A DNA stretch of 64,000 nt, taken from contig CALQEU020000009.1 in assembly GCA_943329665.2 (NCBI GenBank), forward strand, positions 19,489 to 83,488, written 5' to 3'. The DNA comes from Bifidobacterium breve. Lineage in GTDB: Bacteria > Bacteroidota > Bacteroidia > AKYH767-A > OLB10. The notes beneath the pieces are model-generated. The model was given only the letters and a program-made list of their open reading frames with translations. It made no database searches and was not told the DNA's origin. Shown piece by piece: positions 36,791-50,854 of this stretch. A program made the position numbers and the translations under genes. The number at the start of each line of letters is the position of its first letter. The first letter of the stretch is position 1.

Positions 36791-37489
36791 CTATCGTACT
36801 AAAGCACTCTTCTCCACCCGCTCACAACAAGCATCCGGATTCTCTTTCAACATCACCCCACGTTGTATTAAAAATAACGCCAAAACAATCGCTACCACCG
36901 GACTTATTTTTTGCACCCAATTCCTAGCTTTTATACTGATAAAACTTCCTGACAAGGATAACACCAACATCATCGGTATGGTTCCCAATCCAAATAAAGC
37001 CATATAACTCATCCCTTCTAAAACACCATGGCTGCTTGCTGCACCCGCCAAGGCCAAGTACACAAATCCACAGGGCAAAAATCCATTCAGCACTCCAATA
37101 AAATATAAGGAGGCAAACGATTTTTTTTGCATGAAACTACCCAATGCTTTTTTGAGAAAGGCAGTAAATTTATAAATGCGATGATTGATTTTAGTTTGTA
37201 CTGCTTGGGTATTGAATAAAACAAAAAGAATGATGATGATTCCACTCAAAATACTAATGTCACTTTGCCATCCATTGATGCTAAGTGAATGTCCGAATAA
37301 TCCTGCAAGTGCGCCGAAAATAGAGTAGGTGGTTACTCTTCCTATATTGTAAAGCAAGCGAGAAACAAAGAGTGAAGTCATTTGTTGATCGCGGTTGGGT
37401 AAAGCCATAGCGATGGGACCACACATGCCTGCACAGTGAAAGCTTCCAAAAAAGCCAATGGTTAATGCCGACCAAAGAAATAAATCCAT
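36791..37489 (-). CDS. TauE/SafE or DsbD_2-like membrane protein of the cbb3 maturation cluster
   Basis: N-terminus MDLFLWSALTIGFFGSFHCAGMCGPIA plus six TM segments. The ATG at 37489 overlaps the fixH stop codon by 1 nt (TAATG). The longer track ORF is rejected. Confidence 0.75.
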   Translation of the reverse strand: MDLFLWSALTIGFFGSFHCAGMCGPIAMALPNRDQQMTSLFVSRLLYNIGRVTTYSIFGALAGLFGHSLSINGWQSDISILSGIIIILFVLFNTQAVQTKINHRIYKFTAFLKKALGSFMQKKSFASLYFIGVLNGFLPCGFVYLALAGAASSHGVLEGMSYMALFGLGTIPMMLVLSLSGSFISIKARNWVQKISPVVAIVLALFLIQRGVMLKENPDACCERVEKSALVR

Positions 37490-37929
37490 TATTGAATGAT
37501 GATTTTTTCTTCTTGATAGTAGGATGTGTCGTTTGTACTCCAACTTGATTTAACTCTCCACAAACCTTTGGAGAGTTTATCTGTTGGAATATTTTGAACT
37601 CCGTCTGCTATGTCTATCGGAATTTTAAAATCGAGTTTAGAGTTATCAGGACGAAAGAGCACAATTTCTCCCGTTGTATTATTTGGAGTACTGTTTTCCG
37701 GAAAGACAATTTGAATATTGCTATGTTTAGGAGAATAAACAACCGCAAGTTTAACATCCAACTTTTCGCTGTTGTTCAGTCGATCTATTTTATCCTGAAA
37801 CTTTAATTCTTGTGCATAATAGTCAGTGCTGACTAAATCAACACTTTGCTGCGTGCATTTATACACTAAAAAGAGCATGCCGCCAACAAATGCAGTGTAG
37901 AGTAATATAATTCGTAGTCCCCAGTTCAT
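37489..37929 (-). CDS. FixH/CcoH-like protein
   Basis: 146 aa with a single N-terminal TM segment. It sits between ccoG and the TauE-like gene. FixH-like length and topology. Confidence 0.78.
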   Translation of the reverse strand: MNWGLRIILLYTAFVGGMLFLVYKCTQQSVDLVSTDYYAQELKFQDKIDRLNNSEKLDVKLAVVYSPKHSNIQIVFPENSTPNNTTGEIVLFRPDNSKLDFKIPIDIADGVQNIPTDKLSKGLWRVKSSWSTNDTSYYQEEKIIIQ

Positions 37930-37934
37930 CTTTT

Positions 37935-39356
37935 TTATGGTGTTGGTCCAATGAAGTTTGATTCTTCTTCACCGAGTTTTTTTCCTTGTGAGAGCACTTG
38001 TATTTTAATTTTTGTTTTTGATTTTACTATCTCTTTTTGATCTAAGATCACAAAGAATTCGCCTTCGGCAATATCTTGTTCTTTTAATTCTGTAAAGTTT
38101 TTTCCTACCCACTGAATTGTTCCTTTTGGCTCTACAATTTTTATTTCGATGGGCAAATTATTAAACGTTTTGTTCACCACTTTTATATTGTAAAGGTTGC
38201 TCACTTTCTGATTGGGCAACTCTTGGTAAAGCATTCCGGGGGTTCTTAAAATGGTAGCTTCCACATCGGTTCGTATAGCCAGTAATGTGATGAGGGCCCC
38301 CAGTAAAATAAAGAGAACTACGGAGTAGCCAATGATACGTGTGGTTACTTTGAATTTAATTCCTTTAGCAATGGCATTTTCACTGGTGTATCGAATAAGT
38401 CCGCGTGGCAAATCAACTTTGTCCATGATGGAATCACAAGCGTCAATGCAAGCGGTACAGTTCACACATTCCAATTGGGTACCGTTTCTGATATCAATTC
38501 CCGTAGGGCATACTTGCACACACTGATGGCAATCGATACAATCACCAGCCTTCCGCTCTTGTCCCTTGTGCAATTTCTCACGAGGCTCACCACGGTTGTA
38601 ATCATAGGCGATGACCACTGAATTTTTATCCAACAACACACCTTGTAAACGACCATAAGGACAAACTACAATGCATGCTTGTTCTCTAAACTTAGTGTAC
38701 ACACCGTAAAACACCAAGGTAAAAATGGACAAGCTAATGAGTCCACCCAAATGTTGGGAAGGACCTTCACTTATTATTTCGAATAACTTATCAACTCCAA
38801 TGATGTAAGCTAAGAATGTATTGGCGATGATAAAAGAGATAATAAAGAAAATACTATTCTTTAAAAACTTCTTTCTAAATTTTATGGGATTGGGCGACTC
38901 TGCATTCAATGCTTTTTGCTGCATATAATCGCCTTCTATTAAGTATTCAATTTTACGGAACACCATCTCCATAAAAATAGTTTGAGGACAAGCCCATCCA
39001 CACCAAATACGTCCAAAGAGTGCAGTAAACAATATGATGAACACAATAAATGTTAGCATGGCTAACACAAACAGATGGAAGTCTTGTGGCCAAAATGCAA
39101 TTCCAAATAAAATAAATTTACGCTCTAATATATTAAAAAGCATTAAGGGATGCCTCTTAATTTTCATAAACGGACCACTAAAAAGTAAAATCAAAAAGAA
39201 AATACTTACTGCAGTACGCTTATTATAAAAATCTCCTTTTGGCTTTTTCGGATAGATCCAATTCCGTTTTCCATCCTCTGAAATCGTCGCAACGGTATCG
39301 CGAAAACTTCCTTTTGGATCGGGAAGGGGAGGAGCTATGGGATTAGGATCTGACAA
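37935..39356 (-). CDS. ccoG: Cytochrome c oxidase accessory protein CcoG/FixG (4Fe-4S ferredoxin)
   Basis: 473 aa. Cys clusters CIDCHQCVQVCP and CVNCTACIDAC, plus CGWACPQT. A TTG start lies 4 nt after the ccoP stop codon. Confidence 0.9.
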   Translation of the reverse strand: MSDPNPIAPPLPDPKGSFRDTVATISEDGKRNWIYPKKPKGDFYNKRTAVSIFFLILLFSGPFMKIKRHPLMLFNILERKFILFGIAFWPQDFHLFVLAMLTFIVFIILFTALFGRIWCGWACPQTIFMEMVFRKIEYLIEGDYMQQKALNAESPNPIKFRKKFLKNSIFFIISFIIANTFLAYIIGVDKLFEIISEGPSQHLGGLISLSIFTLVFYGVYTKFREQACIVVCPYGRLQGVLLDKNSVVIAYDYNRGEPREKLHKGQERKAGDCIDCHQCVQVCPTGIDIRNGTQLECVNCTACIDACDSIMDKVDLPRGLIRYTSENAIAKGIKFKVTTRIIGYSVVLFILLGALITLLAIRTDVEATILRTPGMLYQELPNQKVSNLYNIKVVNKTFNNLPIEIKIVEPKGTIQWVGKNFTELKEQDIAEGEFFVILDQKEIVKSKTKIKIQVLSQGKKLGEEESNFIGPTP

Positions 39357-39359
39357 GTT

Positions 39360-40331
39360 TTATTGGTTTACGATGATGATGCTATCGACGCTGATACTAT
39401 CTGTTAGTTGTGAACTTATCATTTCTTCAACATACTTTTCACCTTGAGGTTCCTTTCCACCCACGGGATTACTTCCATGCTTGGTCAAGATAAAGCTTGC
39501 GACTTGTTGTATTTGTTTTGGCGTCAATTGCGATTTCCAAGAAATCATTCCTTTTGCTGGAACACCTTCCGTAATGACTTTGAAAATATTCCTGATACCA
39601 CCGCCATTGATCCAAAAATCGTCCGTTAAATTGGGTCCTACACTACCACCTAATTCAGCACCGTGACATGCAACACAATTTTTATCATAAATTCCTTTTC
39701 CAGCACCTAATGCTTCCGGTGTATTTAGAGCTGTGATTGTTTCAGCAGAAACAAAATCCTTCATGCTTAACTCGCGAGCTTTCGCTTGATCTGCGGCTTC
39801 TTGCATAGCAATATTATATTCTTCGGTTTGTAGTGGACCTGTTCTGAAAAGATGATAATGTGCTAAATAAACAAACGCAAAAATGATGGTTGCATAAAAT
39901 CCCCATACCCACCACGGCGGTAAATTATTATCCAATTCTTTAATCCCATCATAATTGTGATCCAACATAATGTCGGCTTCTTTTTCTACCGGTACTGCTT
40001 TCGTAAGTATATCCCGATCGAAGCGTGTCCAAAAACTAGGCCCATGCAATTCTTCTTCAAAGGCTTTTTCCTTCTTGAGTTCTAGAGCTTGTCTTTTTTC
40101 TGGTGAAAGCAAAGCATATGATAATTTCTTTAAACTTTTAGTTAAAGAAATAATGACAATGAGCATGATGAGAAATAAAAAGATCAGCAGATAAAGTTCC
40201 GATTGAAAAAATATTTCCGGAACTTTTTCAGTCGCTGGAGTAGGCGTAACTGCACCTTGTCCAAAGGAAGTAAGATTGGATGCCGCTAGAAGGAATCCAG
40301 AGTGAAGTATTTTGTTAAATCTATTTTTCAT
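39360..40331 (-). CDS. ccoP: cbb3-type cytochrome c oxidase subunit III (mono-heme form)
   Basis: 323 aa. CcoP N-terminal motif (HNYDGIKELDNNLPPWW) and a single CVACH heme-c site. Confidence 0.85.
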   Translation of the reverse strand: MKNRFNKILHSGFLLAASNLTSFGQGAVTPTPATEKVPEIFFQSELYLLIFLFLIMLIVIISLTKSLKKLSYALLSPEKRQALELKKEKAFEEELHGPSFWTRFDRDILTKAVPVEKEADIMLDHNYDGIKELDNNLPPWWVWGFYATIIFAFVYLAHYHLFRTGPLQTEEYNIAMQEAADQAKARELSMKDFVSAETITALNTPEALGAGKGIYDKNCVACHGAELGGSVGPNLTDDFWINGGGIRNIFKVITEGVPAKGMISWKSQLTPKQIQQVASFILTKHGSNPVGGKEPQGEKYVEEMISSQLTDSISVDSIIIVNQ

Positions 40332-40341
40332 AGATGTATTT

Positions 40342-40518
40342 TTAATCGTTGTTAAGTTCTGAGTTTTCTAAAGGAATTCGACTTGCTTTTTCAATATGTT
40401 CTTTGTCCATCTTTATCAAATAGGCAATGAGAACAGTAAAGAATGCGAAGAATACGAGTAAGGAGAATATAGGATAGATGCTCACGCCAGCTATACTTTC
40501 AAGGATATTTCTAAACAT
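40342..40518 (-). CDS. ccoQ: CcoQ/FixQ-like small membrane subunit (58 aa, below the ORF-track cutoff)
   Basis: My own translation gives MFRNILESIAGVSIYPIFSLLVFFAFFTVLIAYLIKMDKEHIEKASRIPLENSELNND. It has one TM segment, lies between ccoNO and ccoP, and the G..IYPI.SLL.FF pattern resembles Bacteroidota CcoQ. Confidence 0.65.
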   Translation of the reverse strand: MFRNILESIAGVSIYPIFSLLVFFAFFTVLIAYLIKMDKEHIEKASRIPLENSELNND

Positions 40519-40529
40519 ATCTTTTCGTT

Positions 40530-42644
40530 TTATTCGGTTTTAGATGCTTTGATATCTGTTCCCAATCGTTGCAAGTAGGCGATGATAGCAATGAGTTCTT
40601 TATTGGAATCGATGCTCACCTTATTTATCTTGAGATCGTCTGCTATGCTCTTCGCTTGCTTGGTAAGATCATCGTTTGCTTTAACATCATATCCTGCAGG
40701 ATAGGGAACTCCTAAAGTTTGCATGGCTCTAATTTTTGCAGGAGTACTTGTAATGTCTAATTCATTTTCAGCCATGAATGCATAGGATGGCATGATGGAA
40801 CCAGGAGACATAATAGTTGGATCAATCATATGATGGTAATGCCATACATTCGGATATTTTCCACCTTGGCGATGCAAATCCGGACCCGTTCGTTTCGATC
40901 CCCATTGGAATGGATGATCGTAAACAAATTCACCAGCTTTGGAATATTCACCATAACGTTCGGTCTCTGATCGGAATGGTCGCACCATCTGTGAGTGACA
41001 TGTGTAACAGCCTTCACGTATGTAAATATCTCTACCTTGTAATTCTAAAGGTGTATAAGGTTTCACACTCGCAATGGTGGGTATATTCGATTGCACAAGG
41101 AACGTAGGAATAAACTCGACAACACCACCAATCAAAATGACAACCGCACTTAAAATAATCATTTGTACTGGACGACGCTCAATCCAACGATGCCAATGAC
41201 CTGCATGCTCTTTCTCATTTTTCTCTAGTTTTGGAGCTTCTGCAGCTTCTTCTGCATTCAATGTTCCTTGCTTCATCGTTTTTACCAAGTTATACGCCAT
41301 CGTGATGGCACCAGTCAGAAACATCAATCCACCTAATGCACGAAGTTTATACATCGGCATAATCTGGGTAACAGTCTCGAGGAAGTTTGGATATTTTAGA
41401 ATTCCATCTGCTGTAAATTCTTTCCACATTAAACTTTGTGTGAATCCTGCCCAATACATCGGCACAGCGTAGAATAAAATCCCAAGTGTGGCAATCCAAA
41501 AATGGAAGGAAGCTAATTTAGCAGAGTATAAATTGGTTTTGTAAAGTCGAGGTATTAACCAATACAAAATACCAAAGGTCAACATACCATTCCATCCCAT
41601 TCCACCAATGTGTACGTGAGCGATGGTCCAGTCCGTAAAGTGACTAATGGCATTCACACTTTTCAACGATAACATCGGACCTTCAAATGTCGACATACCA
41701 TAAGCGGTAATCGCTACCACCATAAATTTCAATACCACATCTTCTCGAACACGATCCCATGCACCACGTAGTGTTAACAGTCCATTGATCATCCCACCCC
41801 AGGATGGAGCTAAGAGCATAATGGAAAATACCGTTCCTAAAGATTGTGCCCAATCAGGTAAGGATGAATATAAAAGATGATGAGGACCTGCCCAGATGTA
41901 TAAAAATATCAATGCCCAAAAGTGAATGATGGATAATCGATACGAATATACAGGTCGATTTGCAGCTTTCGGAACGAAGTAATACATCAATCCTAAGTAA
42001 GGCGTTGTTAAGAAAAATGCAACCGCATTATGTCCGTACCACCATTGCACTAACGCATCTTGAACGCCCGCGTATGCAGAATAACTTTTTAAGATGCTAA
42101 CTGGAATTTCAATAGAGTTTACAATATGTAAAACGGCAACTGTAACCACAGTAGCAATATAAAACCAAATAGCAACATACATATGTCGCTCTCTTCGTTT
42201 GATAAGCGTTCCAAACATATTTATAGCAAAAGCTACCCAAACAATAGCGATAAGAATATCGATAGGCCATTCCAATTCTGCATATTCTTTTCCAGTGGTA
42301 TGTCCAGTAAGCAAAGTCACCGCTGCAAGAACGATGATCGATTGCCATCCCAAAAAATGAAATTTACTCAAGCCATCACTAAACATTCGTGCTTTACACA
42401 AACGTTGTAATGAATAATACAATCCCATAAAAATTCCATTCCCTACAAATGCGAAGATGATCGCATTGGTATGTACCGGTCGGACTCGACCGAAAGTCAA
42501 GTACTCGCCAATGTTAAGTCCGGGGAACGGAATTTGTAAAGCTATGATAAGCCCTAGTAACATGCCGACAAGCCCCCAAATGATGGTGGCTAAGGCAAAG
42601 TTTTTAACGATGCGGTTGTCGTAGCTAAATTTTTCAATCGTCAT
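40530..42644 (-). CDS. ccoNO: Fused cbb3-type cytochrome c oxidase subunits I and II (CcoN-CcoO)
   Basis: 704 aa. The N-terminal ~470 aa form a heme-copper oxidase subunit I (12 or more TM segments with His ligands, e.g. WTIAHVH). The C-terminal ~220 aa are CcoO with the heme-c site CYTCHSQM. Confidence 0.93.
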   Translation of the reverse strand: MTIEKFSYDNRIVKNFALATIIWGLVGMLLGLIIALQIPFPGLNIGEYLTFGRVRPVHTNAIIFAFVGNGIFMGLYYSLQRLCKARMFSDGLSKFHFLGWQSIIVLAAVTLLTGHTTGKEYAELEWPIDILIAIVWVAFAINMFGTLIKRRERHMYVAIWFYIATVVTVAVLHIVNSIEIPVSILKSYSAYAGVQDALVQWWYGHNAVAFFLTTPYLGLMYYFVPKAANRPVYSYRLSIIHFWALIFLYIWAGPHHLLYSSLPDWAQSLGTVFSIMLLAPSWGGMINGLLTLRGAWDRVREDVVLKFMVVAITAYGMSTFEGPMLSLKSVNAISHFTDWTIAHVHIGGMGWNGMLTFGILYWLIPRLYKTNLYSAKLASFHFWIATLGILFYAVPMYWAGFTQSLMWKEFTADGILKYPNFLETVTQIMPMYKLRALGGLMFLTGAITMAYNLVKTMKQGTLNAEEAAEAPKLEKNEKEHAGHWHRWIERRPVQMIILSAVVILIGGVVEFIPTFLVQSNIPTIASVKPYTPLELQGRDIYIREGCYTCHSQMVRPFRSETERYGEYSKAGEFVYDHPFQWGSKRTGPDLHRQGGKYPNVWHYHHMIDPTIMSPGSIMPSYAFMAENELDITSTPAKIRAMQTLGVPYPAGYDVKANDDLTKQAKSIADDLKINKVSIDSNKELIAIIAYLQRLGTDIKASKTE

Positions 42645-42829
42645 ACAGCGTCTGTATTTTTAGAATTAGGTTGTTCTTTTTGAGTTACTATTTCGTCGTC
42701 AAATAATATTCGTACTGCTGGCGATACATCATCATCATATTGTCCTGTCTTCACCGACCATAAAAATCCAATGAGGAAACTTCCTGCTACTAATAAGCTA
42801 AATGATATTAATATTAAGATGACACTCAT
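42641..42829 (-). CDS. ccoS: cbb3 oxidase maturation protein CcoS/FixS
   Basis: MSVILILISFSLLVAGSFLIGFLWSVKTGQYDD is CcoS-like. It overlaps the ccoNO start by 4 nt. The ATG at 42829 is preferred to the TTG at 42838. Confidence 0.8.
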   Translation of the reverse strand: MSVILILISFSLLVAGSFLIGFLWSVKTGQYDDDVSPAVRILFDDEIVTQKEQPNSKNTDAV

Positions 42830-42835
42830 GATGCG

Positions 42836-42843
42836 CAAATCTA
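42836..42843 (-). promoter_or_regulatory. -7 promoter box (TAGATTTG on the minus strand) just upstream of ccoS
   Basis: Plus-strand CAAATCTA at 42836-42843. It is only 6 nt from the ccoS ATG, which implies a very short or absent leader. Confidence 0.35.
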
Positions 42844-42887: not shown

Positions 42888-42901
42888 TTGACAATTATCA
42901 G
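42888..42901. promoter_or_regulatory. FNR/FixK-like palindrome TTGACAATTATCAG upstream of ccoS-ccoNO
   Basis: The pattern is TTGAC-N4-ATCA. Its centre is 65.5 nt upstream of the ccoS ATG. It overlaps the ccoI stop codon (42898-42900). Confidence 0.4.
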
Positions 42902-45321
42902 TTTTTCATTCTTGTTAAACCCAAACTTCTCGCTTTTATACTACTTGCAAGCACAGTGTAAATCACTAAGCTACTCGTGCTGATGGGCATAAGGATCGCA
43001 GCAATGATGGGAGATAAAGTGCCTTGTACAGCAAACCAAAGTCCCACTAAATTGTAGAAAATAGAAATGACAAAACTAATAAGGATGATGCGATGTCCCG
43101 ATTTTGCAAAGCGCAGCAAATTTTCAATTTGGCCAAAATTTTTGGATAAGATAATTCCATCACTTCCAGGAGTAAAGTTGTTAATGTCTTCTGCAATAGC
43201 TAATCCTACATCACTTTGCATGAGCGCCCCAGCATCGTTGAGTCCATCACCAATCATCATTACTTTTTTTCCTTGTGATTGCAATTCTTTAATACTATTT
43301 AATTTATCGATAGGCTTTTGTTCAAATTGAATTCCTTCTTTTTGATCCAAGATTTCTTCCAAGTGAGATTGTTCAAAATTAAAATCACCACTCAGAACGG
43401 AAATTTTATATCCCTCTTTCTTCATTGCATGTAATAGTGAAGAGGTAGATTGACGATAAGAAGTTTTGAAATAAAAGAATCCCAATAATTTTCCATCAAT
43501 ACTTACACCTACTTCAGATGATTTTACATTTTCATTGTGTGCTTTAGCAACATGTATGAAACTTCTTGATCCCAATTGAACAAAACTTCCCTGTATCGAA
43601 CCTTCGATGCCTTTTCCATTAATTTCCTTTAGATGGGTAATAGGCAATTTATTATTGGAAGAAGATAGAAAGTTGGATAACATCCTACTGAATGGATGAG
43701 AAGATGCATGGGCAAGCGATGCAATAAATTGCTTCTGTAACTCGGTAGGTTCTATTCCAAAATATTCAACTTTATAGTTTTCTGCAGAGGTAAGCGTTCC
43801 TGTTTTATCAAAAACAACAGAATCAATATTTGATAAGCGTTCTAAGACTTTTGTGTTCTTCAAATAGATACCACGCTTACCTAAAATACGAATCATATTG
43901 CCAAATGTAAATGGTGCCGATAACGCCAATGCACAAGCACATGCAATTACTAATACGGAGCTAAATGCTAGCATTGCTCTAGATGGATCTGTCGGGTACC
44001 AGTAGAGTAGGGCGACGACAGCTATGCTTATCGTTATTACGACAAACCATTTGCTGATGCTTTCGGTAAGATGGGCATATTTACTTTTTGTATCGCTTTT
44101 ACCTGAACTTTGATTCCAGAGCTTAGTGATATAACTGTGCGAAACATCCTTTTGAACAAGCACCTCAACGGGTTTACCTATTAATCGTGCCCCAGCAAAA
44201 ATTCGTTCGCCATACTGACAAGTAACTTCTCTTGATTCACCGGTTACAAAACTATAATCGACATGAGCTTGTTTACTAACTAATAACACATCAGCAGGAA
44301 TAATTTCCTGATTTCGGATGAATAAACGATCATTGGGTTTGATCTCTTGAACGGAAACAACTTCTTCCTCAGTTCCATTTAGCCGACTTACTGCAATGGG
44401 AAAGTAAGATTTATAGTCTCGTTCGAAGCTGAGCCATTCATATGTTTTGCTTTGGAAATTTCGTCCGATGAGCATAAAAAAAACCAAGCCTGTCATACTA
44501 TCAAAATAACCAGGACCTGTATCAGAAACTACTTCATAAATACTTCTCGAAAACATCGCAACAATTCCGATGGCTATGGGTACATCTATATTAATGATTT
44601 TTTGACGAAAGCTCATTAAAGCATTTTCTAAAAACTCGTTTGCACTGTAAAAGAATACGGGTAGAGAAAGTAATAAATTCAAATACCCGAAGATGCGATG
44701 AAAATCTTCACCTTCATATTTACCAGATGAAAAGTATTCAGGAAAGCTGAGCAACATAATATTTCCAAAAACGAATCCTGCTATTCCAATCTTATAGATT
44801 CGAGTTTTACTGGACACTTTTGTTTCGCCCTTCTCTAATTCTTTCAAATTAAGTTCAGGAGGATAAGCAATTTCATGTAGTTTCTCCACAATTATTCGCA
44901 AACTCGTTTTAGTATCATCGAAAATGAGGTGCAATTCCTTCTGAATAAAATTGGTTTTAGAACTGATGATACCCGCGTCCAAACGATTCATATGTTCCAA
45001 TAGCCAAATACAACTGGCGCAGTGCATGGCCGGAATGTGGAATTGAATATGAGATACATTACCCTCTTTAAAGAGAATGAGCTTGTCAGAAATGGAAGAT
45101 TGATCTAAATAAGCATATCGGTTACCTAAAAGCGTTTGTGTTTTTCCTGGAGAAGATTGCAGATCATAATAACCACATAAATTATTTTCTTGCAAAAGTT
45201 CAAAAACCAATTTGCAACCTTGACAACAAAAAGATTTACTGTCAAGCACTACGCTCTCTTCTTTGCAATTTTCACCGCAGTGATAGCACTGAGTTTCAGT
45301 ATGAATAATGTTTTCACGCAT
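42898..45321 (-). CDS. ccoI: Heavy-metal (copper) translocating P1B-type ATPase CcoI/FixI
   Basis: 807 aa. N-terminal Cys-rich region, CAC in TM6 (IACACALALS), phosphorylation site DKTGTLT, and the hinge GDGLNDAGAL. Confidence 0.9.
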   Translation of the reverse strand: MRENIIHTETQCYHCGENCKEESVVLDSKSFCCQGCKLVFELLQENNLCGYYDLQSSPGKTQTLLGNRYAYLDQSSISDKLILFKEGNVSHIQFHIPAMHCASCIWLLEHMNRLDAGIISSKTNFIQKELHLIFDDTKTSLRIIVEKLHEIAYPPELNLKELEKGETKVSSKTRIYKIGIAGFVFGNIMLLSFPEYFSSGKYEGEDFHRIFGYLNLLLSLPVFFYSANEFLENALMSFRQKIINIDVPIAIGIVAMFSRSIYEVVSDTGPGYFDSMTGLVFFMLIGRNFQSKTYEWLSFERDYKSYFPIAVSRLNGTEEEVVSVQEIKPNDRLFIRNQEIIPADVLLVSKQAHVDYSFVTGESREVTCQYGERIFAGARLIGKPVEVLVQKDVSHSYITKLWNQSSGKSDTKSKYAHLTESISKWFVVITISIAVVALLYWYPTDPSRAMLAFSSVLVIACACALALSAPFTFGNMIRILGKRGIYLKNTKVLERLSNIDSVVFDKTGTLTSAENYKVEYFGIEPTELQKQFIASLAHASSHPFSRMLSNFLSSSNNKLPITHLKEINGKGIEGSIQGSFVQLGSRSFIHVAKAHNENVKSSEVGVSIDGKLLGFFYFKTSYRQSTSSLLHAMKKEGYKISVLSGDFNFEQSHLEEILDQKEGIQFEQKPIDKLNSIKELQSQGKKVMMIGDGLNDAGALMQSDVGLAIAEDINNFTPGSDGIILSKNFGQIENLLRFAKSGHRIILISFVISIFYNLVGLWFAVQGTLSPIIAAILMPISTSSLVIYTVLASSIKARSLGLTRMKN

Positions 45322-45368
45322 GGTAGTTCCTAGACGAGCAATTTTACTTCAACTATTGGAAAGAGATA

Positions 45369-45382
45369 TTGACGAAAGTCAT
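45369..45382. promoter_or_regulatory. FNR/FixK-like palindrome TTGACGAAAGTCAT (ccoI-proximal)
   Basis: TTGAC-N4-GTCAT within ATATTGACGAAAGTCAT. Its centre is 54.5 nt from the ccoI ATG (45321). Confidence 0.45.
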
Positions 45383-45427: not shown

Positions 45428-45441
45428 TTGACTTATGTCAT
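45428..45441. promoter_or_regulatory. FNR/FixK-like palindrome TTGACTTATGTCAT (proximal to the 45489 ORF)
   Basis: TTGAC-N4-GTCAT within ATATTGACTTATGTCAT. Its centre is 54.5 nt from the ATG at 45489. It shares 13 of 17 positions with the site at 45369. Confidence 0.45.
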
Positions 45442-45488
45442 AGAAATAATGATAGAATTCTTTCATTTTTGTTGAATATATACCGAAA

Positions 45489-45926
45489 ATGTACAGTCGA
45501 TTTAATCAAAATGAAATGCTGAAAATCCTAATTAGTGACGAGCGAAAATTAATGGAAATACAAAAGGATTTTACGTTATATTTTCCCTTCTTGAAACTAG
45601 AATTTTTTAAAGCTCCCCATAAAATTGGAGATGGCTCTGCTAAAAATTTACTGCTCGATTCCAATAAGTTGATCAAGGATTGTAGAAGCAGCCGTCCAAC
45701 GCTTCATATAGAAATCAAAGAAAGTATGACGGTAGATCAATTGGAGCAATTATTATTTGAAAACTTCGGATTGGCAGCCCAAGTGTTTAGAAAATCAGGA
45801 AACGTTTGGTTAGAAACATCGGCTACCGATAACTGGACCTTACTTCAACAGAATAATGAAGGAGCAGAATTGTCAACCCAAATCAAGGAGAACCGCGAAA
45901 ATTTAGATAATATCGATCCTTACTAA
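45489..45926 (+). CDS. Hypothetical protein, divergent from ccoI
   Basis: 145-aa ORF with an ATG start and no recognised motif. Confidence 0.6.
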   Translation: MYSRFNQNEMLKILISDERKLMEIQKDFTLYFPFLKLEFFKAPHKIGDGSAKNLLLDSNKLIKDCRSSRPTLHIEIKESMTVDQLEQLLFENFGLAAQVFRKSGNVWLETSATDNWTLLQQNNEGAELSTQIKENRENLDNIDPY

Positions 45927-45936
45927 TAATTGGCTA

Positions 45937-45986
45937 ATTTAAACGCTGCGTTCGCAACGGTTTCGCTGCGTTCGCTGCGTTTAAAT
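45937..45986. terminator. Large hairpin between convergent genes (candidate bidirectional terminator)
   Basis: ATTTAAACGC (45937-45946) pairs with GCGTTTAAAT (45977-45986). The 30-nt loop contains GCTGCGTTCGC twice. Confidence 0.45.
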
Positions 45987-46005: not shown

Positions 46006-47067
46006 TTATCCCTTCAACGACCTTAATTTCTTTTCATCAATGATTTTTATTTTTCCTCCTTTGATCTCGATCAAATTTTCTTCTTTGAAATCACTTAAAG
46101 TTCTAATTAAAGACTCTGTCGCTGTACCCACAATATTCGCTAAGTCATCACGCGCAATGGCCATTGAAAACTGTCCTTCGTCCTTGACTTGATATTTTTC
46201 CTGAAGTAGGATTAAAGCTTCCGCCGTTCTTTTTCTTACAGAACTATAGGCCAAGTCCACTAAACGCTCTTGTTTGTCGACAACACCTTTCGTAAGAATT
46301 TTTAAAAAGCTTCTCGTCACCGATACATTTCCAAAAATCATATTATGAAACTCGTCTTTTGGAATGAAAGTAATTTCGGAATCTTCTAAAGTTTCTGCTG
46401 ATTCATTATAAGGTTTCTCCTCTAATAAACTCGTGTAGGCAAAGAAGTCGCCTTCCTTTAAAAGATCAGTGATGAGTTCTTTTCCATACTCATGAGTCTT
46501 GAAAATCTTTACTTTCCCTTGGTTGATATAATAAAGACCATTTGGGTAATTTCCTTCAAGATAGATCGTCTCTTTCTTCTTGTAATGATTTATCTTTTTT
46601 CCTTCCAAAAATTTTTTCAATGCATTTGATCCCGCAACATCACTGATGAAGGTACTCAATCCGTCAAAGTCTTTTTCATATTCTTTTTTAAGTACCTCAG
46701 CCTTTTTTATACGACTTTCTACCGCATTTAATAATTCAGTCTTATCAAATGGTTTGGTGATATAATCATCTGCTCCTAAGTCCATGCCTTTACGCATATC
46801 GCTGCGTTCTGCTTTTGCAGTAAGGAAGATGAAAGGAATAGCTGACATCGCAGGATCTTTCCCTAAAAGATGCAAGACGCCATAGCCATCTAATCCTGGC
46901 ATCATGATGTCGCAAATGATTAAATCAGGTTGTTCTTGACGCGCCAATTCTACGCCTTCTTTTCCATCAGGTGCAGTGTACACTTTGTAATGTGCTAACT
47001 CTAAAATTTCAGCAGTGTTCTCACGAACATCTACATTGTCTTCAATTAATAATATTTTCTTGTCCAT
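46006..47067 (-). CDS. Response regulator with a receiver domain fused to a Crp/Fnr-type cNMP-binding domain and HTH
   Basis: 353 aa. The REC domain has E9/D10, D53 (IICDIMMPGLDG), T83 and K105 (ITKPF). The middle domain is a beta-roll cNMP-binding fold (IYLEGNYPNGLYYINQGKVKIFK...). The C-terminal Crp-type HTH reads RDDLANIVGTATESLIRTLSDF. There is no FNR-type Cys cluster. Confidence 0.88.
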   Translation of the reverse strand: MDKKILLIEDNVDVRENTAEILELAHYKVYTAPDGKEGVELARQEQPDLIICDIMMPGLDGYGVLHLLGKDPAMSAIPFIFLTAKAERSDMRKGMDLGADDYITKPFDKTELLNAVESRIKKAEVLKKEYEKDFDGLSTFISDVAGSNALKKFLEGKKINHYKKKETIYLEGNYPNGLYYINQGKVKIFKTHEYGKELITDLLKEGDFFAYTSLLEEKPYNESAETLEDSEITFIPKDEFHNMIFGNVSVTRSFLKILTKGVVDKQERLVDLAYSSVRKRTAEALILLQEKYQVKDEGQFSMAIARDDLANIVGTATESLIRTLSDFKEENLIEIKGGKIKIIDEKKLRSLKG

Positions 47068-47070
47068 ATT

Positions 47071-48318
47071 TTAATGTTGCTGAGGAAAAGTAATTTTAAT
47101 AGTTGTTCCCTTTTCCAATTCACTTTTAAGTTCTAAACTTCCGTTCATTAAATCAACATAACTTCCTACAATATGTAATCCTAATCCAGTTCCTTGAATG
47201 TTAAATGCATTTTTAGCTCTAAAGAAACGTTCAAATAAATGCTTTTGGTCTTCTTTACTAATTCCAATTCCTTTATCTTTTATTTCGATAAAAACAGAAA
47301 GGTCATTCACTTGAACAGAAACCAGTATTTTTTTGTTTTCAGGACTAAATTTAACGGCATTATTGATTAAATTAATAAGAATATTCTTGATCAATTTTAT
47401 GTCTAACGAAACTTCAGCATTTCCTACATGCTGATAAACGATTTCTTGTCCTGACTTTACATTTAATTGCAAATCGCTCACTATTTCCTTCACTAAATGT
47501 GGCAAATCAAATTTCCTAAATTCAGTATGTACTTTTCCTTCTTCCAATTTGCTAAGCGATAAAAAGTCACTCAAAATGTCATTTAAATTGTTCACCGCTG
47601 ATTTGATTCTAGAAATATGTTTTTCTCTTTTGTCATTATTTGCGGTCTCTACATATTCAGAGATAAGGCTCGCTGAAGAGAGAATCGTGGTCAAGGGTGT
47701 TCTGAATTCATGAGAAGCCATAGAAATAAACCTTGATTTTAAATCATTAAGATCTTTTTCCTTCTCCAATGCAAGTCGTAATTCTTCCTTCGACTTCTCC
47801 AATTCCCGAATGGCTTCTTGCAAAACCTTCGTTCGGTCAGAAACTTTCTTTTCCAATCCTTCATTGGTAGTGATGAGCGCTGCAGCTACACGCTCTAATT
47901 CATGTTGCTTCTCTTTAACAGTGACCTCAATTCCTTTTCTAACAGTGATGTCTATAATAAAGGCAACAACAAATTTTTGCCCTTTGATTTGCACTGGGCT
48001 CAAACTTATTTCCACTGGAAATTGTGTTCCGTCTTTTCTTTCTGCAAAAAGATCCATTCCCGTACCCATGGGACGGGCATATAGTTCTTTGCTATAATTT
48101 TCTCGATGATTGTGATGATGTCCTCTAACATTGGATGGAACTATATCTTCAATCTTTAATTCATGTAATTCTTCATCGGTATGACCCAACATCCTCGCTG
48201 CAGAACTATTCGCCATACGAATTCGCCCTTCCATATCCGATACAATGATCCCTTCCGTGGCATCTTTGAAGACGGTATCAATAATTTCACTTCTGTTAAT
48301 TTCATCCATAATTCTCAT
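47071..48318 (-). CDS. Cytoplasmic PAS-domain sensor histidine kinase (FixL-like PAS core)
   Basis: No TM segments. PAS domain at roughly aa 17-130 in track numbering, a coiled-coil linker, H box SHEFRTPLT, N box NLINNAVKFS, G1 DKGIGI and G2 GTGLGL. Its stop codon is 3 nt before the regulator's ATG. The start is ATG 48318 or 48309; the track's TTG at 48333 is less likely. Confidence 0.88.
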   Translation of the reverse strand: MRIMDEINRSEIIDTVFKDATEGIIVSDMEGRIRMANSSAARMLGHTDEELHELKIEDIVPSNVRGHHHNHRENYSKELYARPMGTGMDLFAERKDGTQFPVEISLSPVQIKGQKFVVAFIIDITVRKGIEVTVKEKQHELERVAAALITTNEGLEKKVSDRTKVLQEAIRELEKSKEELRLALEKEKDLNDLKSRFISMASHEFRTPLTTILSSASLISEYVETANNDKREKHISRIKSAVNNLNDILSDFLSLSKLEEGKVHTEFRKFDLPHLVKEIVSDLQLNVKSGQEIVYQHVGNAEVSLDIKLIKNILINLINNAVKFSPENKKILVSVQVNDLSVFIEIKDKGIGISKEDQKHLFERFFRAKNAFNIQGTGLGLHIVGSYVDLMNGSLELKSELEKGTTIKITFPQQH

Positions 48319-48383
48319 TCCAAGTCTACGCAATAAATGTAATTATTTTCATAGACTTCGGAGAATATGGAACTCTACTAAAA

Positions 48384-48581
48384 TCAGACATCTCCTGTTT
48401 TAGGATGATTCGTGTTGATGCCTAAAATGCTATATAGCGGGCAAATACCAACAACGCCTGTAATAAATGGGATGAGACCTAAAAGCGCCCAAGGACTGTT
48501 GTGGTATACAAAAAACATGGCGATGGTCACACCTAGAAATACTCTAATTACCCGATCGGTAGAACTTTCATTTGTTTTCAT
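48384..48581 (-). CDS. DUF2892 (YgaP-like) small membrane protein
   Basis: 65 aa. DRVIRVFLGV...GICPLYSILGI is the DUF2892 pattern. Confidence 0.7.
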   Translation of the reverse strand: MKTNESSTDRVIRVFLGVTIAMFFVYHNSPWALLGLIPFITGVVGICPLYSILGINTNHPKTGDV

Positions 48582-48658
48582 GATGTTGCAGTTTAAATTT
48601 GATTTTCAAAAATAAACTGCTAAATCGTTTTTGTAACTATCAAAAATCAGCTCAAAAA

Positions 48659-48672
48659 ATGATCTTTGTCAG
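48659..48672. promoter_or_regulatory. Weaker FNR-like palindrome ATGATCTTTGTCAG upstream of the DUF2892-kinase-regulator genes
   Basis: TGAT-N4-GTCA. Its centre is 84.5 nt upstream of the DUF2892 ATG (48581). Confidence 0.25.
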
Positions 48673-48675
48673 ACT

Positions 48676-50076
48676 CTACAAAGTAAAACTTTCATGCATC
48701 ATGGGTATGACAATGTCTGAAAAACCCATTCCATGCAAATGCTTTTTAAATGTCAATTGCGCTTCTTTTTCCCCGTGCACTAAGAATAAGCGCTTTACCT
48801 TTGAAGTGTCCTGACATGATAAGTATTGCATGAGTTCTTCATAGTCCGCATGAGCACTATAAGAACCCATCACTTTAACACTTGCTCTTAAAGGAATCAA
48901 CTTACCAAAAATTCGCACTTCCGATTCTCCTTGGATCATTCTATCGCCTAAGGAACCCGGCGGAACAAAACCAACAATTAAAACGGTGTTTTTAGCGTCC
49001 ATAATATTATTTTTTAGATGATGCTTTATCCGACCCGCTTCCATCATTCCAGAAGCAGAGATAATAATACATGGCTCTTGTTTTTCATTCAACTTCTTCG
49101 ATAATTCTACGTCGCGGATATAATGTAAGCTCTCAAATCCAAATGGATCATCATCTTTTTTCATGTACTCAACAATTTCCGGATTGAACGAGTCCCTATG
49201 TTTCCGCATGATGGCAGTAGCACTGATAGCAAGAGGTGAATCTACATAAACTGGAATTTTCTCGAGTTGTCCTTTGTTGAAAAGACGATTGAGTGCATAA
49301 ACGATTTCCTGTGTCCGACCTAAACTAAATGCAGGAATAATTAATTTCCCTTTGTTTAAAATACAAGTTTGATGTACTACTTTCAATAATTCAAGTTCAG
49401 TGTTTTCTACATCTTCATGAAGTCGGTCGCCGTAAGTGGATTCCGTAATGATATAATCTGCTTGAGGAAATGGTTGAGGTGACTTTAAAATATAATCGTT
49501 GAATCGGCCAGTATCTCCTGAAAAGAAAACTTTTACCTTTTCTTCAGGCTCATCAAACTCTAAATTAACAGCAGCGCTGCCTAAAATATGTCCCGCATCC
49601 GTAAAATGAAAACGAATATGCTTATCGATAGCCACCTTCTCATTGAGCTCCACGGGGACAAATAATTTCAAAGCTTCTTGCACATCTTCCAACGTATAGA
49701 GTGGATCTATTTCTTTTTGCCCATTTCTAGCTCGTTTTCTATTGAGATATTTTACATCACTCTCTTGAATATGGGCGCTGTCTTCCAACATAATAGTACA
49801 CAAATCAAGAGTTGCTAGTGTACAATAAATAGGACCAGAAAAGCCTTGTCTTATCAAATGAGGAATATTCCCCGAATGATCAATATGAGCATGCGACAAA
49901 ATCATATAATCTACTTCTGTGGGATCAAATCCAAAATGCCGATTCATATCCGCATTGTCGCCACCTCGGTTTTGAAAGAGTCCGCAATCGAGCAATATTT
50001 TTTTACCACGATCTGTTGTAATGAGATGCTTACTTCCAGTAACGGTTTGTGCGGCTCCGTGAAATGTTATTTGCAT
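48676..50076 (-). CDS. MBL-fold / beta-CASP RNA-metabolising metallo-hydrolase
   Basis: 466 aa. HAHIDHSG (HxHxDH motif), beta-CASP motifs, and a C-terminal RNA-specificity domain (SAHADYEEL). Confidence 0.88.
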   Translation of the reverse strand: MQITFHGAAQTVTGSKHLITTDRGKKILLDCGLFQNRGGDNADMNRHFGFDPTEVDYMILSHAHIDHSGNIPHLIRQGFSGPIYCTLATLDLCTIMLEDSAHIQESDVKYLNRKRARNGQKEIDPLYTLEDVQEALKLFVPVELNEKVAIDKHIRFHFTDAGHILGSAAVNLEFDEPEEKVKVFFSGDTGRFNDYILKSPQPFPQADYIITESTYGDRLHEDVENTELELLKVVHQTCILNKGKLIIPAFSLGRTQEIVYALNRLFNKGQLEKIPVYVDSPLAISATAIMRKHRDSFNPEIVEYMKKDDDPFGFESLHYIRDVELSKKLNEKQEPCIIISASGMMEAGRIKHHLKNNIMDAKNTVLIVGFVPPGSLGDRMIQGESEVRIFGKLIPLRASVKVMGSYSAHADYEELMQYLSCQDTSKVKRLFLVHGEKEAQLTFKKHLHGMGFSDIVIPMMHESFTL

Positions 50077-50278: not shown

Positions 50279-50854
50279 ATGATAAAAATCAGACTGCTAT
50301 TCATCCTTTGCTTCTCCATGTTGCTGGGATTGCATCTTTATGCACAAGAAAATACTCGAGAGGTAGTGTGGAATCAAATAAACGGACTTACGACAGATGA
50401 TTTCCAAAGAAATTTAGCGAATGTCCCAAAAAAGCAAAAAGTGGGTCGCAATACGTATGCTCAGCTAGAAGGATATATTTATTGCGGAATTAAATTTTCG
50501 TATGAGCAAAGAGGAAATAATTTGAAATACGAAATCTATTCATTCATGGAACCAGCCCAATCCTGGATCCGCGACAAAAGCAATGTAGGAACCCTCGAGC
50601 ATGAACAAGCCCATTTTAATATTTCTGAAATATATGCTCGTAAACTCAAATACGATTTACGAAATGAATGGAATTTAAAGAGAGCGAAAAAGAAGTACAA
50701 GCAGATGTTTAAATCGCTGTTAAAAAAACAAGCCGCTTTTGATAAAGATCATCACGGCGAAGTAGGAGTAGAGCGCAAATGGGAAATATGGATTGCCGAT
50801 CAATTGCGAGAGTTGAATCAGTATGCGGATAAGAGCTTAAATTTGAGACGGTGA
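50279..50854 (+). CDS. DUF922-like secreted Zn-dependent protease
   Basis: Signal peptide MIKIRLLFILCFSMLLGLHLYAQ and the HExxH-like motif LEHEQAHFNISE. Confidence 0.72.
   Translation: MIKIRLLFILCFSMLLGLHLYAQENTREVVWNQINGLTTDDFQRNLANVPKKQKVGRNTYAQLEGYIYCGIKFSYEQRGNNLKYEIYSFMEPAQSWIRDKSNVGTLEHEQAHFNISEIYARKLKYDLRNEWNLKRAKKKYKQMFKSLLKKQAAFDKDHHGEVGVERKWEIWIADQLRELNQYADKSLNLRR

Follow-up and report, generated by a model that had tools for sequence, protein, structure and literature searches.

A receiver-Crp/Fnr fusion regulator with a heme-PAS-like kinase beside a cbb3 oxidase cluster: a candidate single-tier low-oxygen circuit in Bacteroidota

Bacteria adjust to low oxygen through several well-established regulatory circuits. 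In rhizobia and Caulobacter, the heme-PAS histidine kinase FixL acts on FixJ, a protein composed of a receiver (REC) and a LuxR-type helix-turn-helix (HTH), which activates the separate gene fixK, and the Crp/Fnr-fold protein FixK then activates fixNOQP and fixGHIS (cco). RegB/RegA of Proteobacteria and DosS/DosT-DosR of Mycobacterium do without such an intermediate tier. For aerobic and micro-aerobic Bacteroidota from soil, water and hosts (Chitinophagales, Cytophagales, Sphingobacteriales and some Flavobacteriales), we know of no established oxygen regulator. The present analysis concerns a kinase-regulator gene pair in a stretch of 64,000 nucleotides (nt) of contig CALQEU020000009.1 (assembly GCA_943329665.2, deposited as Bifidobacterium breve and placed by its GTDB lineage in Bacteroidota), hereafter called the window. 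The pair lies beside a gene cluster for a cbb3 oxidase, and its regulator is a fusion of a receiver with a Crp/Fnr-type module. It probably constitutes a single-tier low-oxygen two-component system that directly activates the cbb3 oxidase and stress genes.

The regulator gene occupies positions 46006..47067 on the minus strand and encodes a protein of 353 amino acids. Pfam assigns Response_reg to residues 5-117 (E 9e-30), cNMP_binding (PF00027) to residues 161-244 (E 2e-22) and HTH_Crp_2 (PF13545) to residues 280-350 (E 1e-14), the last two above their gathering cut-offs. The hallmarks of a receiver domain are all present, namely the E9-D10 acidic pocket, D53, T83 and K105, and an alignment of 16 relatives, which extends down to 64% identity, shows no variation at D10, D53, T83 or K105. 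The C-terminal module consists of a degenerate cNMP-binding beta-roll, a long dimerisation helix (C-helix) and a C-terminal winged HTH, the elements by which the Crp/Fnr superfamily is recognised. Its closest solved structure is 2gau, a Crp/Fnr protein of Porphyromonas (E 2e-31), followed by mycobacterial and E. coli CRP and by FNR at E values of 1e-12 to 1e-17. The secondary structure of an AlphaFold2 model of the monomer, with a long alpha-5 in the receiver, two linker helices, the beta-roll, a helix spanning residues 248-292 and the winged HTH, agrees with the Pfam domain order. The first-pass annotation of this DNA, made by a model from the letters and their open reading frames (ORFs), had described a complete receiver joined to a full Crp/Fnr effector module, and both halves of that description are borne out.

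Neither the iron-sulfur ligands of FNR nor the cyclic AMP (cAMP) contacts of CRP were found in the regulator. It has a single cysteine, C52, which lies within the receiver. An alignment to E. coli FNR begins at FNR residue 53, with the receiver standing in place of the N-terminal Cys-cluster region and FNR C122 aligned to a Thr. The set that ligates [4Fe-4S] in FNR, the N-terminal Cys cluster together with the central Cys, is absent, as had already been noted in the first pass. At the positions that contact cAMP in the Mycobacterium tuberculosis CRP, G-E has become A-Y and R-T has become Y-N, so that the Glu and Arg-Ser/Thr expected of a CRP-type phosphate-binding cassette are missing; of the tyrosines, Y220 shows no variation in the regulator family and Y211 almost none. 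Since the cassette Glu and Arg-Thr are replaced by Tyr and Tyr-Asn, the regulator is no canonical cAMP receptor. The recognition helix, T317-E318-S319-L320-I321-R322, is invariant in the same 16-sequence alignment. Its E318 and R322 align to FNR E209/R213 and to CRP E181/R185, with FNR S212 aligned to I321 and CRP R180 to Thr. This helix Glu and Arg would give the regulator, as judged from its sequence, the FNR/FixK type of recognition, which is directed at TTGAT-N4-ATCAA-like targets.

The fusion is not a peculiarity of this locus. Each of the best 120 database relatives, which are at least 64% identical, has this three-domain composition. A HMMER scan of 1.84 billion cluster representatives returned 2963 representatives at E <= 1e-30; the best 150 are nearly all full-length (approximately 350 amino acids) and extend down to 36-40% identity. 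The REC-Crp architecture is consequently abundant, and it is already catalogued in databases, where the relatives bear only names such as 'response regulator' or 'CRP-like'. No NCBIfam equivalog reaches its cut-off for either the regulator or the kinase.

The kinase gene (47071..48318, minus strand) lies directly upstream, its stop codon 3 nt from the regulator ATG, and encodes a sensor histidine kinase with a PAS domain, a coiled-coil linker, HisKA and HATPase_c. The H-box (SHEFRTPL) and the N, G1, F and G2 boxes are present in the sequence. A hydrophobic segment was not found at its N-terminus. The first pass had thus correctly placed a soluble PAS-HisKA-HATPase kinase 3 nt upstream of the regulator, but the start taken from the ORF finder, a TTG at 48333, is less likely than the ATG at 48318 (MRIMDE...), which separate ORF calling selects. 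The partnership of the two proteins rests on this genetic pairing, from which phosphotransfer is predicted.

Comparisons with solved structures place the PAS domain in the heme-binding group. When the domain of this kinase is compared on its own with the PDB, the FixL heme domains are the best matches (1d06, E 1e-10; BjFixL, 6e-10), followed by E. coli DosP. A profile built from 22 PAS domains of the family matches DosP at 1e-20 and FixL at 2.5e-20, and all of its top 14 matches belong to the heme-PAS group; the next classes of PAS domain, such as CitA and LOV, begin at 1e-7, more than 10 orders of magnitude worse. Of the 71 kinases with a regulator partner, 68 retain the His that corresponds to the proximal His of FixL; this residue is the second His of GHHHNH and lies opposite BjFixL H200. 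The other kept positions are R(+4) in 56, Y/F(+7) in 68, R(+14) in 58 and M(+16) in 58. On the basis of the profile matches and the conserved proximal His, the domain is assigned by sequence to the FixL-type heme-PAS subgroup, and it would be expected to bind heme. LOV or flavin sensing was considered and rejected, as LOV structures score at least 13 orders of magnitude worse than heme-PAS structures. The best single match of the profile is PDB entry 10jx (E 3e-21), whose sole description is 'Multi-sensor signal transduction histidine kinase' and which contains the family motif H-x2-HR-x2-Y-x3-P-x2-R-x-MG.

The cbb3 genes are all encoded on the minus strand. Pfam identifies the ccoI/fixI copper P-type ATPase gene at 42898..45321 and, within 36791..42829, the remaining oxidase and maturation genes: ccoS (42641-42829), a fused ccoNO (40530-42644), a ccoQ-like gene (40342-40518), ccoP (39360-40331), ccoG (37935-39356), fixH (37489-37929) and a DsbD_2 gene (36791-37543). 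A single gene of the plus strand, orf145 (45489..45926), separates them from the regulator gene. This arrangement, with ccoI to fixH beside the pair and one ORF in between, had been proposed in the first pass and is confirmed by the Pfam assignments.

To determine how far the arrangement is conserved, a scan of a genome collection was used, which yielded at least 594 species loci. The best 80 were analysed as loci of approximately 21 kb with 10-kb flanks (1.33 Mb in total). Their ORFs were called, the products were clustered (81 sources, i.e. the 80 loci and part of the window), and tblastn served as a check; the 43 loci flanked by at least 8 kb on either side are referred to as full-flank loci. 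A regulator ORF is present in 77 loci. In 70 of these 77 the kinase gene immediately precedes the regulator gene on the same strand, and the two most often overlap by 4 nt. The pair is conserved across several Bacteroidota orders. Core cco genes lie within 10 kb in 27 of the 77 loci; among the full-flank loci the count is 18 of 43, or 21 of 43 when ccoI is included. As a rough estimate, well under 1% would be expected for a randomly placed gene. Relative to the pair, the cco genes occur in four arrangements: downstream on the same strand (4), downstream on the opposite strand (8), upstream on the opposite strand (8) and upstream on the same strand (7). The first-pass annotation had named two computable outcomes that would speak against it, namely a regulator that fails to match Crp/Fnr models and orthologues without conserved linkage to cco genes. 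Neither was obtained: the models match, and the linkage is retained.

Two features of gene organisation among the relatives are also of interest. In L038, L049, L064 and L076 (Adhaeribacter, Pontibacter and relatives), a kinase, a stand-alone receiver of approximately 150 amino acids, a second kinase and the REC-Crp regulator are encoded in that order. This gene order of the Hymenobacteraceae suggests a longer phosphorelay into the same regulator. One metagenome-assembled genome (JBGAOE01, loci L008 and L010) contains two kinase-regulator pairs, one near cco and the other among genes for universal stress proteins (Usp), Hsp20, DoxX and the orf145 family.

The intergenic DNA of the loci contains a common motif. 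All palindromes with half-sites of 4 or 5 nt and gaps of 0-10 nt were compared between intergenic and coding DNA. TGAT-N4-ATCA ranks first, with 79 intergenic occurrences against 73 in approximately 11 times more coding DNA (10-fold enrichment), and TGAC-N4-GTCA ranks third among the intergenic palindromes (19-fold enrichment). Because these two sequences top an unbiased screen, the box can be written as TGAYnnnnRTCA, which is of the FNR/FixK type; A or C is preferred 5' of the core across the loci. In the window, TTGAC-N4-GTCA occurs exactly twice (0.41 expected), both times in the 167-bp intergenic region between ccoI and orf145. The first pass had proposed TTGAC-N4-GTCA boxes as the target sites. 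They do belong to a conserved FNR-type motif with fixed promoter spacing, but the definition was too narrow, the core being TGAY-N4-RTCA.

The position of the box relative to the promoter is equally regular. Measured from the end of the box, the spacing to TAnnTTTG, the -7 element of Bacteroidota, peaks sharply at two values, 23 nt and 45 nt, and 79 of the 96 spacings between 0 and 70 nt fall in the ranges 22-24 or 44-46. In 59 promoters with the exact 45-nt spacing, a second TGA-N6-TCA follows exactly 22 bp downstream (T 92%, G 86%, A 93% ... T 92%, C 76%, A 93%), and 23 nt separate this second site from the -7 element. These spacings indicate a proximal site near -41.5, alone or accompanied by a stronger distal one near -63.5, where both positions are judged from the distance to the -7 element. 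Placement of the -41.5 type is the known geometry of activators of the CRP/FNR kind.

There are 11 exact boxes in the window, against 6.3 expected, and four of them have the spacing of the family: those before ccoS, ccoI, orf145 and the kinase operon. The box of the ygaP-like/kinase/regulator operon, TGACAAAGATCA as read on the minus strand (48660..48671), is 45 nt from the -7 element TATTTTTG (48607-48614), and a TGA half-site lies 22 bp downstream of its start. The box of ccoS-ccoNOQP, TGATAATTGTCA in the minus-strand reading (42889..42900), overlaps the end of ccoI; the -7 element at 45 nt, TAGATTTG (42836-42843), is perfect. The other two show the shorter spacing: the minus-strand box of ccoI (TGACGAAAGTCA on the plus strand, 45370..45381) is 23 nt from the -7-like TAAAATTG (45339-45346), and the plus-strand box of orf145, TGACTTATGTCA (45429..45440), is 23 nt from the -7-like CATTTTTG (45464-45471).

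When exact boxes within 300 nt upstream of genes are counted across the loci, the cco genes are prominent (ccoS 18/19, ccoNO 22/27 and ccoI 18/26), and the regulon looks wider than cco. Boxes precede genes for DoxX (8/8), Hsp20 (9/11), RIC (5/7), HemA-like proteins (3/3), Usp (18/39), a 132-aa coiled-coil family (16/28) and orf145 (11/22), as well as a Pyridox_ox_2 gene in some loci; upstream of the regulator gene, which is second in its operon, they occur in 2/79. Several of the same families recur near the pair: the 132-aa family, which has no Pfam match, in 28 of the 81 sources, tandem Usp genes in 24, the orf145 family in 21 (window included), Hsp20 in 13, DoxX and the RIC/ScdA di-iron protein in 8 each, a HemN-like radical-SAM protein in 7, and TerB-like, Pyridox_ox_2 and HemA-like proteins in a few sources each. 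The HemN-like gene also looks like a member of the wider regulon.

The protein that binds these boxes is probably the regulator itself. No other Crp/Fnr-type gene was found in the window, and in the 80 loci there is one weak and distant match (19.6% identity, L003). This leaves the regulator as the only credible DNA-binding protein of the Crp/Fnr type in these neighbourhoods. An FNR-type recognition helix, a box on the system's own operon and the presence of box-bearing genes nearby, which gather around the pair also in loci that lack cco, all favour the regulator as the binder.

Taken as a circuit, these elements would operate as follows. A cytoplasmic kinase with a FixL/DosP-type heme-PAS domain would autophosphorylate when its heme is free of ligand, that is, at low O2, and would then phosphorylate the regulator at D53. 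The receiver would here replace the usual triggers of Crp/Fnr proteins, which are cAMP in CRP and the N-terminal Fe-S cluster in FNR. Phosphorylated receivers may dimerise and thereby bring together or re-orient two Crp-type subunits, whose FNR-like helix (E318, R322) would then bind TGAYnnnnRTCA near -41.5; a second box is often present 22 bp farther upstream, near -63.5. In this locus, the Bacteroidota-type promoters of ccoS-ccoNOQP-ccoG-fixH, ccoI, orf145 and the system's own operon would be activated, and in relatives also those of Usp, Hsp20, DoxX, RIC and other genes. Heme binding, the identity of O2 as the signal, the sign of its effect and the phosphotransfer are the presumed parts of this scheme. 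The comparative evidence supports the compressed FixL-FixJ-FixK circuit that the first-pass annotation had suspected, with the regulator as the presumed binder of the boxes.

Several observations weigh against the scheme. The AlphaFold2 model of the regulator monomer is only moderate in quality, with a predicted local distance difference test score (pLDDT) of 72, a predicted template modelling score (pTM) of 0.40, and values below 50 in the linker and the C-helix, and it is uninformative on the REC/Crp interface and on the mechanism of activation. Nearby cco genes are lacking in about half of the full-flank loci. An exact box precedes the kinase in a minority of sources (32/81), and a Crp/Fnr regulator encoded beyond the sampled 10-kb flanks could bind the boxes. 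Heme binding by the kinase PAS is predicted from homology only. Finally, the position of the FixL distal Arg (R220 in BjFixL) is occupied by Met in the kinase of the window and is variable across the 71 kinases (M 32, R 14, L 9, K 4). The suggestion of a FixL-like sensor thus stands as far as membership in the FixL/DosP group is concerned but does not extend to this residue.

In FixL, the distal Arg couples O2 binding to kinase inhibition and is needed for O2-specific switching. Because it is not conserved here, the ligand could be nitric oxide (NO), carbon monoxide (CO) or the redox state. The same wiring might accordingly serve a different signal, with a heme that is six-coordinated by His and Met, as it is in E. 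coli DosP, and it would then control a nitrosative or redox stress regulon that happens to include cbb3. Such an explanation accommodates the Met kept at +16 in 58 of 71 kinases, the family profile that scores DosP as high as FixL, and the nearby RIC/ScdA di-iron repair genes with boxes in 5/7. Its difficulty lies in the predicted regulon, the core of which is a high-affinity oxidase with its maturation genes. Together with Usp and Hsp20, the HemN-like radical-SAM gene near the pair in 7 loci and the HemA-like genes with boxes in 3/3 represent the classical low-oxygen content of the FixK, FNR and DosR regulons. In addition, one heme sensor commonly senses hypoxia, NO and CO alike, as DosS/DosT do. 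A different signal is, on balance, rather unlikely, both for the sensor and for the character of the regulon.

A separate, stand-alone FNR-like regulator could also be responsible for the boxes, in which case the REC-Crp protein would be just one of its targets or would bind another motif. FNR-type boxes are generic for the superfamily, the survey covered 21-kb loci, and the box before the kinase operon is missing in its exact form from most sources, all of which leaves room for such a protein. However, the single weak match of L003 in 1.33 Mb of loci and the absence of any candidate from the window, the box-bearing genes that surround the pair even without cco, and the invariant FNR-type recognition helix make it improbable. 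A heme-free PAS domain that responds to some unrelated small molecule, with the proximity of cco incidental to the signal, is a very improbable alternative, for although sequence cannot prove a cofactor and PAS domains are versatile, heme-PAS matches lead all other PAS matches by at least 10 orders of magnitude and the proximal-position His is nearly invariant (68/71).

The reading of the pair as a directly acting low-oxygen system can be extended to the phylum, and we lean towards this extension with somewhat less confidence than towards the system itself. The pair would represent an uncharacterised, phylum-wide hypoxia master regulator of aerobic Bacteroidota in which a receiver serves as the Crp/Fnr trigger, and which acts through tandem -41.5/-63.5 sites on Bacteroidota promoters. 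Its targets would include the cbb3 oxidase, heme synthesis and DosR-like stress proteins, together with the orf145 and 132-aa coiled-coil families. In the full-text literature, from which subscription journals were outside coverage, no characterised REC-Crp regulator was found, in accordance with the first-pass annotation, which knew of none that controls a cbb3 oxidase in Bacteroidota. The only near match is a genome note on Chitinophaga that lists a predicted 'FixL-FixJ' (PMC5646412).

The kinase-regulator pair is thereby a concrete candidate for an oxygen regulator, with a defined motif, a defined promoter geometry and a predicted, testable regulon, and it occurs in cultured carriers such as Dyadobacter, Pontibacter, Lacibacter and Ferruginibacter. 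If the proposal is correct, phosphorylation would be a third way of switching the Crp/Fnr fold, beside ligand binding and Fe-S cluster assembly, and the system would be a natural example of FixLJ-FixK-like logic squeezed into one tier. Conserved proteins of unknown function would moreover be assigned a low-oxygen context.

One of these proteins is encoded by orf145, a conserved gene of unknown function and a predicted member of the regulon, which is convergent with the regulator gene and encodes 145 amino acids. No Pfam or NCBIfam match was found for it. Its 196 homologues form a conserved Bacteroidota family with no functional name except two stray JGI labels. The AlphaFold2 model (pLDDT 81, pTM 0.74) comprises two beta-alpha-beta units and a C-terminal helix. 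A Foldseek comparison with the PDB returned nothing below E 0.2, with a vague di-ubiquitin-like resemblance at a TM score of approximately 0.2, and no credible match emerged when PDB sequences were searched with a profile, the highest-scoring one being a ribosomal protein (E 0.0012). Members of the family often adjoin the regulator, with an FNR-type box upstream. In Chitinophagaceae-type loci (L006, L020, L023, L051, L068 and others), the spot beside the regulator is occupied by the coiled-coil-looking family of approximately 132 amino acids. Between the convergent orf145 and regulator genes of the window lies a strong hairpin (45937..45986; dG -27.4 kcal/mol, z -4.07), which is likely to be a bidirectional terminator. 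Its stem contains the short unit (G)CTGCGTTCGC three times.

On the other side of the pair, a small membrane protein of 65 amino acids with a YgaP-like transmembrane domain (PF11127, E 4e-19) is encoded at 48384..48581 on the minus strand. Its gene is the first of the kinase-regulator operon here, behind the boxed promoter, and it has the same place in locus L001; a box lies upstream in 3/3 members of the family. The gene at 48676-50076 (minus strand) encodes a metallo-beta-lactamase/beta-CASP protein with homologues in 7 of the 81 clustered sources, the window included. A box, TGATAAAAATCA, is found at 50280-50291, approximately 210 nt upstream of this gene and 46 nt from an imperfect -7-like TATATTTA, and its membership in the regulon is uncertain. 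Farther away, a 696-aa protein is encoded on the plus strand at 29992-32082. It has a signal-peptide-like N-terminus and a very long, repetitive helical region rich in Ala, Glu, Lys and Gln; no Pfam match was found for it, and the AT skew at the same place is +0.32. A type IX secretion sorting domain is present elsewhere in the window and, like the names of the nearest relatives, points to an uncultured member of the Bacteroidota as the source.

The comparison with FixLJ-FixK, FNR, RegBA and the DosR regulon rests on established knowledge, and by its measure the logic of the present locus is an expected variation on known oxygen circuits. One such circuit is FixL-FixJ-FixK. Both systems have a heme-PAS histidine kinase (here predicted) with a similar HisKA/HATPase core, and in both the final effector is an activator of the Crp/Fnr fold, associated in the rhizobial case with a TTGA-N6-TCAA-type box before fixNOQP/fixGHIS. 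In contrast to its two tiers, the present system would have one, with the receiver fused to the Crp/Fnr module: a FixJ-type partner that activates a separate fixK was not found, the partner of the kinase being the REC-Crp protein. The non-conserved distal Arg and the promoters of the Bacteroidota -7 (TAnnTTTG) type are further differences. With another partner than FixJ and without a conserved distal Arg, the pair does not belong to the FixLJ systems themselves.

FNR of E. coli and its relatives has the fold of the regulator and a box of the same type. The recognition-helix E and R are shared, and so are tandem sites and a box position near -41.5, which is judged here from the spacing to the -7 element. 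Lacking both a Cys cluster and a cAMP cassette, the regulator falls outside the FNR and CRP sensors. The regulator differs in that it has no Cys cluster, which argues against Fe-S sensing, and in that its N-terminal extension is a phospho-receiver, so that the signal would come from a separate kinase. RegB/RegA (PrrBA, RoxSR) is likewise a single-tier two-component system with direct control of ccoNOQP; however, its membrane kinase senses redox or quinones, and its regulator has a Fis-type HTH and an unrelated motif. E. coli DosP (EcDOS) shares the sensor type, as indicated by its match to the family profile (E 1e-20) and the aligned proximal His, but its output is a c-di-GMP phosphodiesterase and not a kinase, and its axial Met95, as read from the alignments, falls at a different position from the Met conserved in the kinase family. 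DosS/DosT-DosR, in turn, combines a heme-based kinase and a single response regulator with a regulon rich in Usp and Hsp20/alpha-crystallin proteins, a similarity to which the boxed Pyridox_ox_2 gene of some loci can be added. Unlike the system described here, it carries its heme in a GAF domain, uses a regulator of the NarL/LuxR type and does not involve a cbb3 oxidase.

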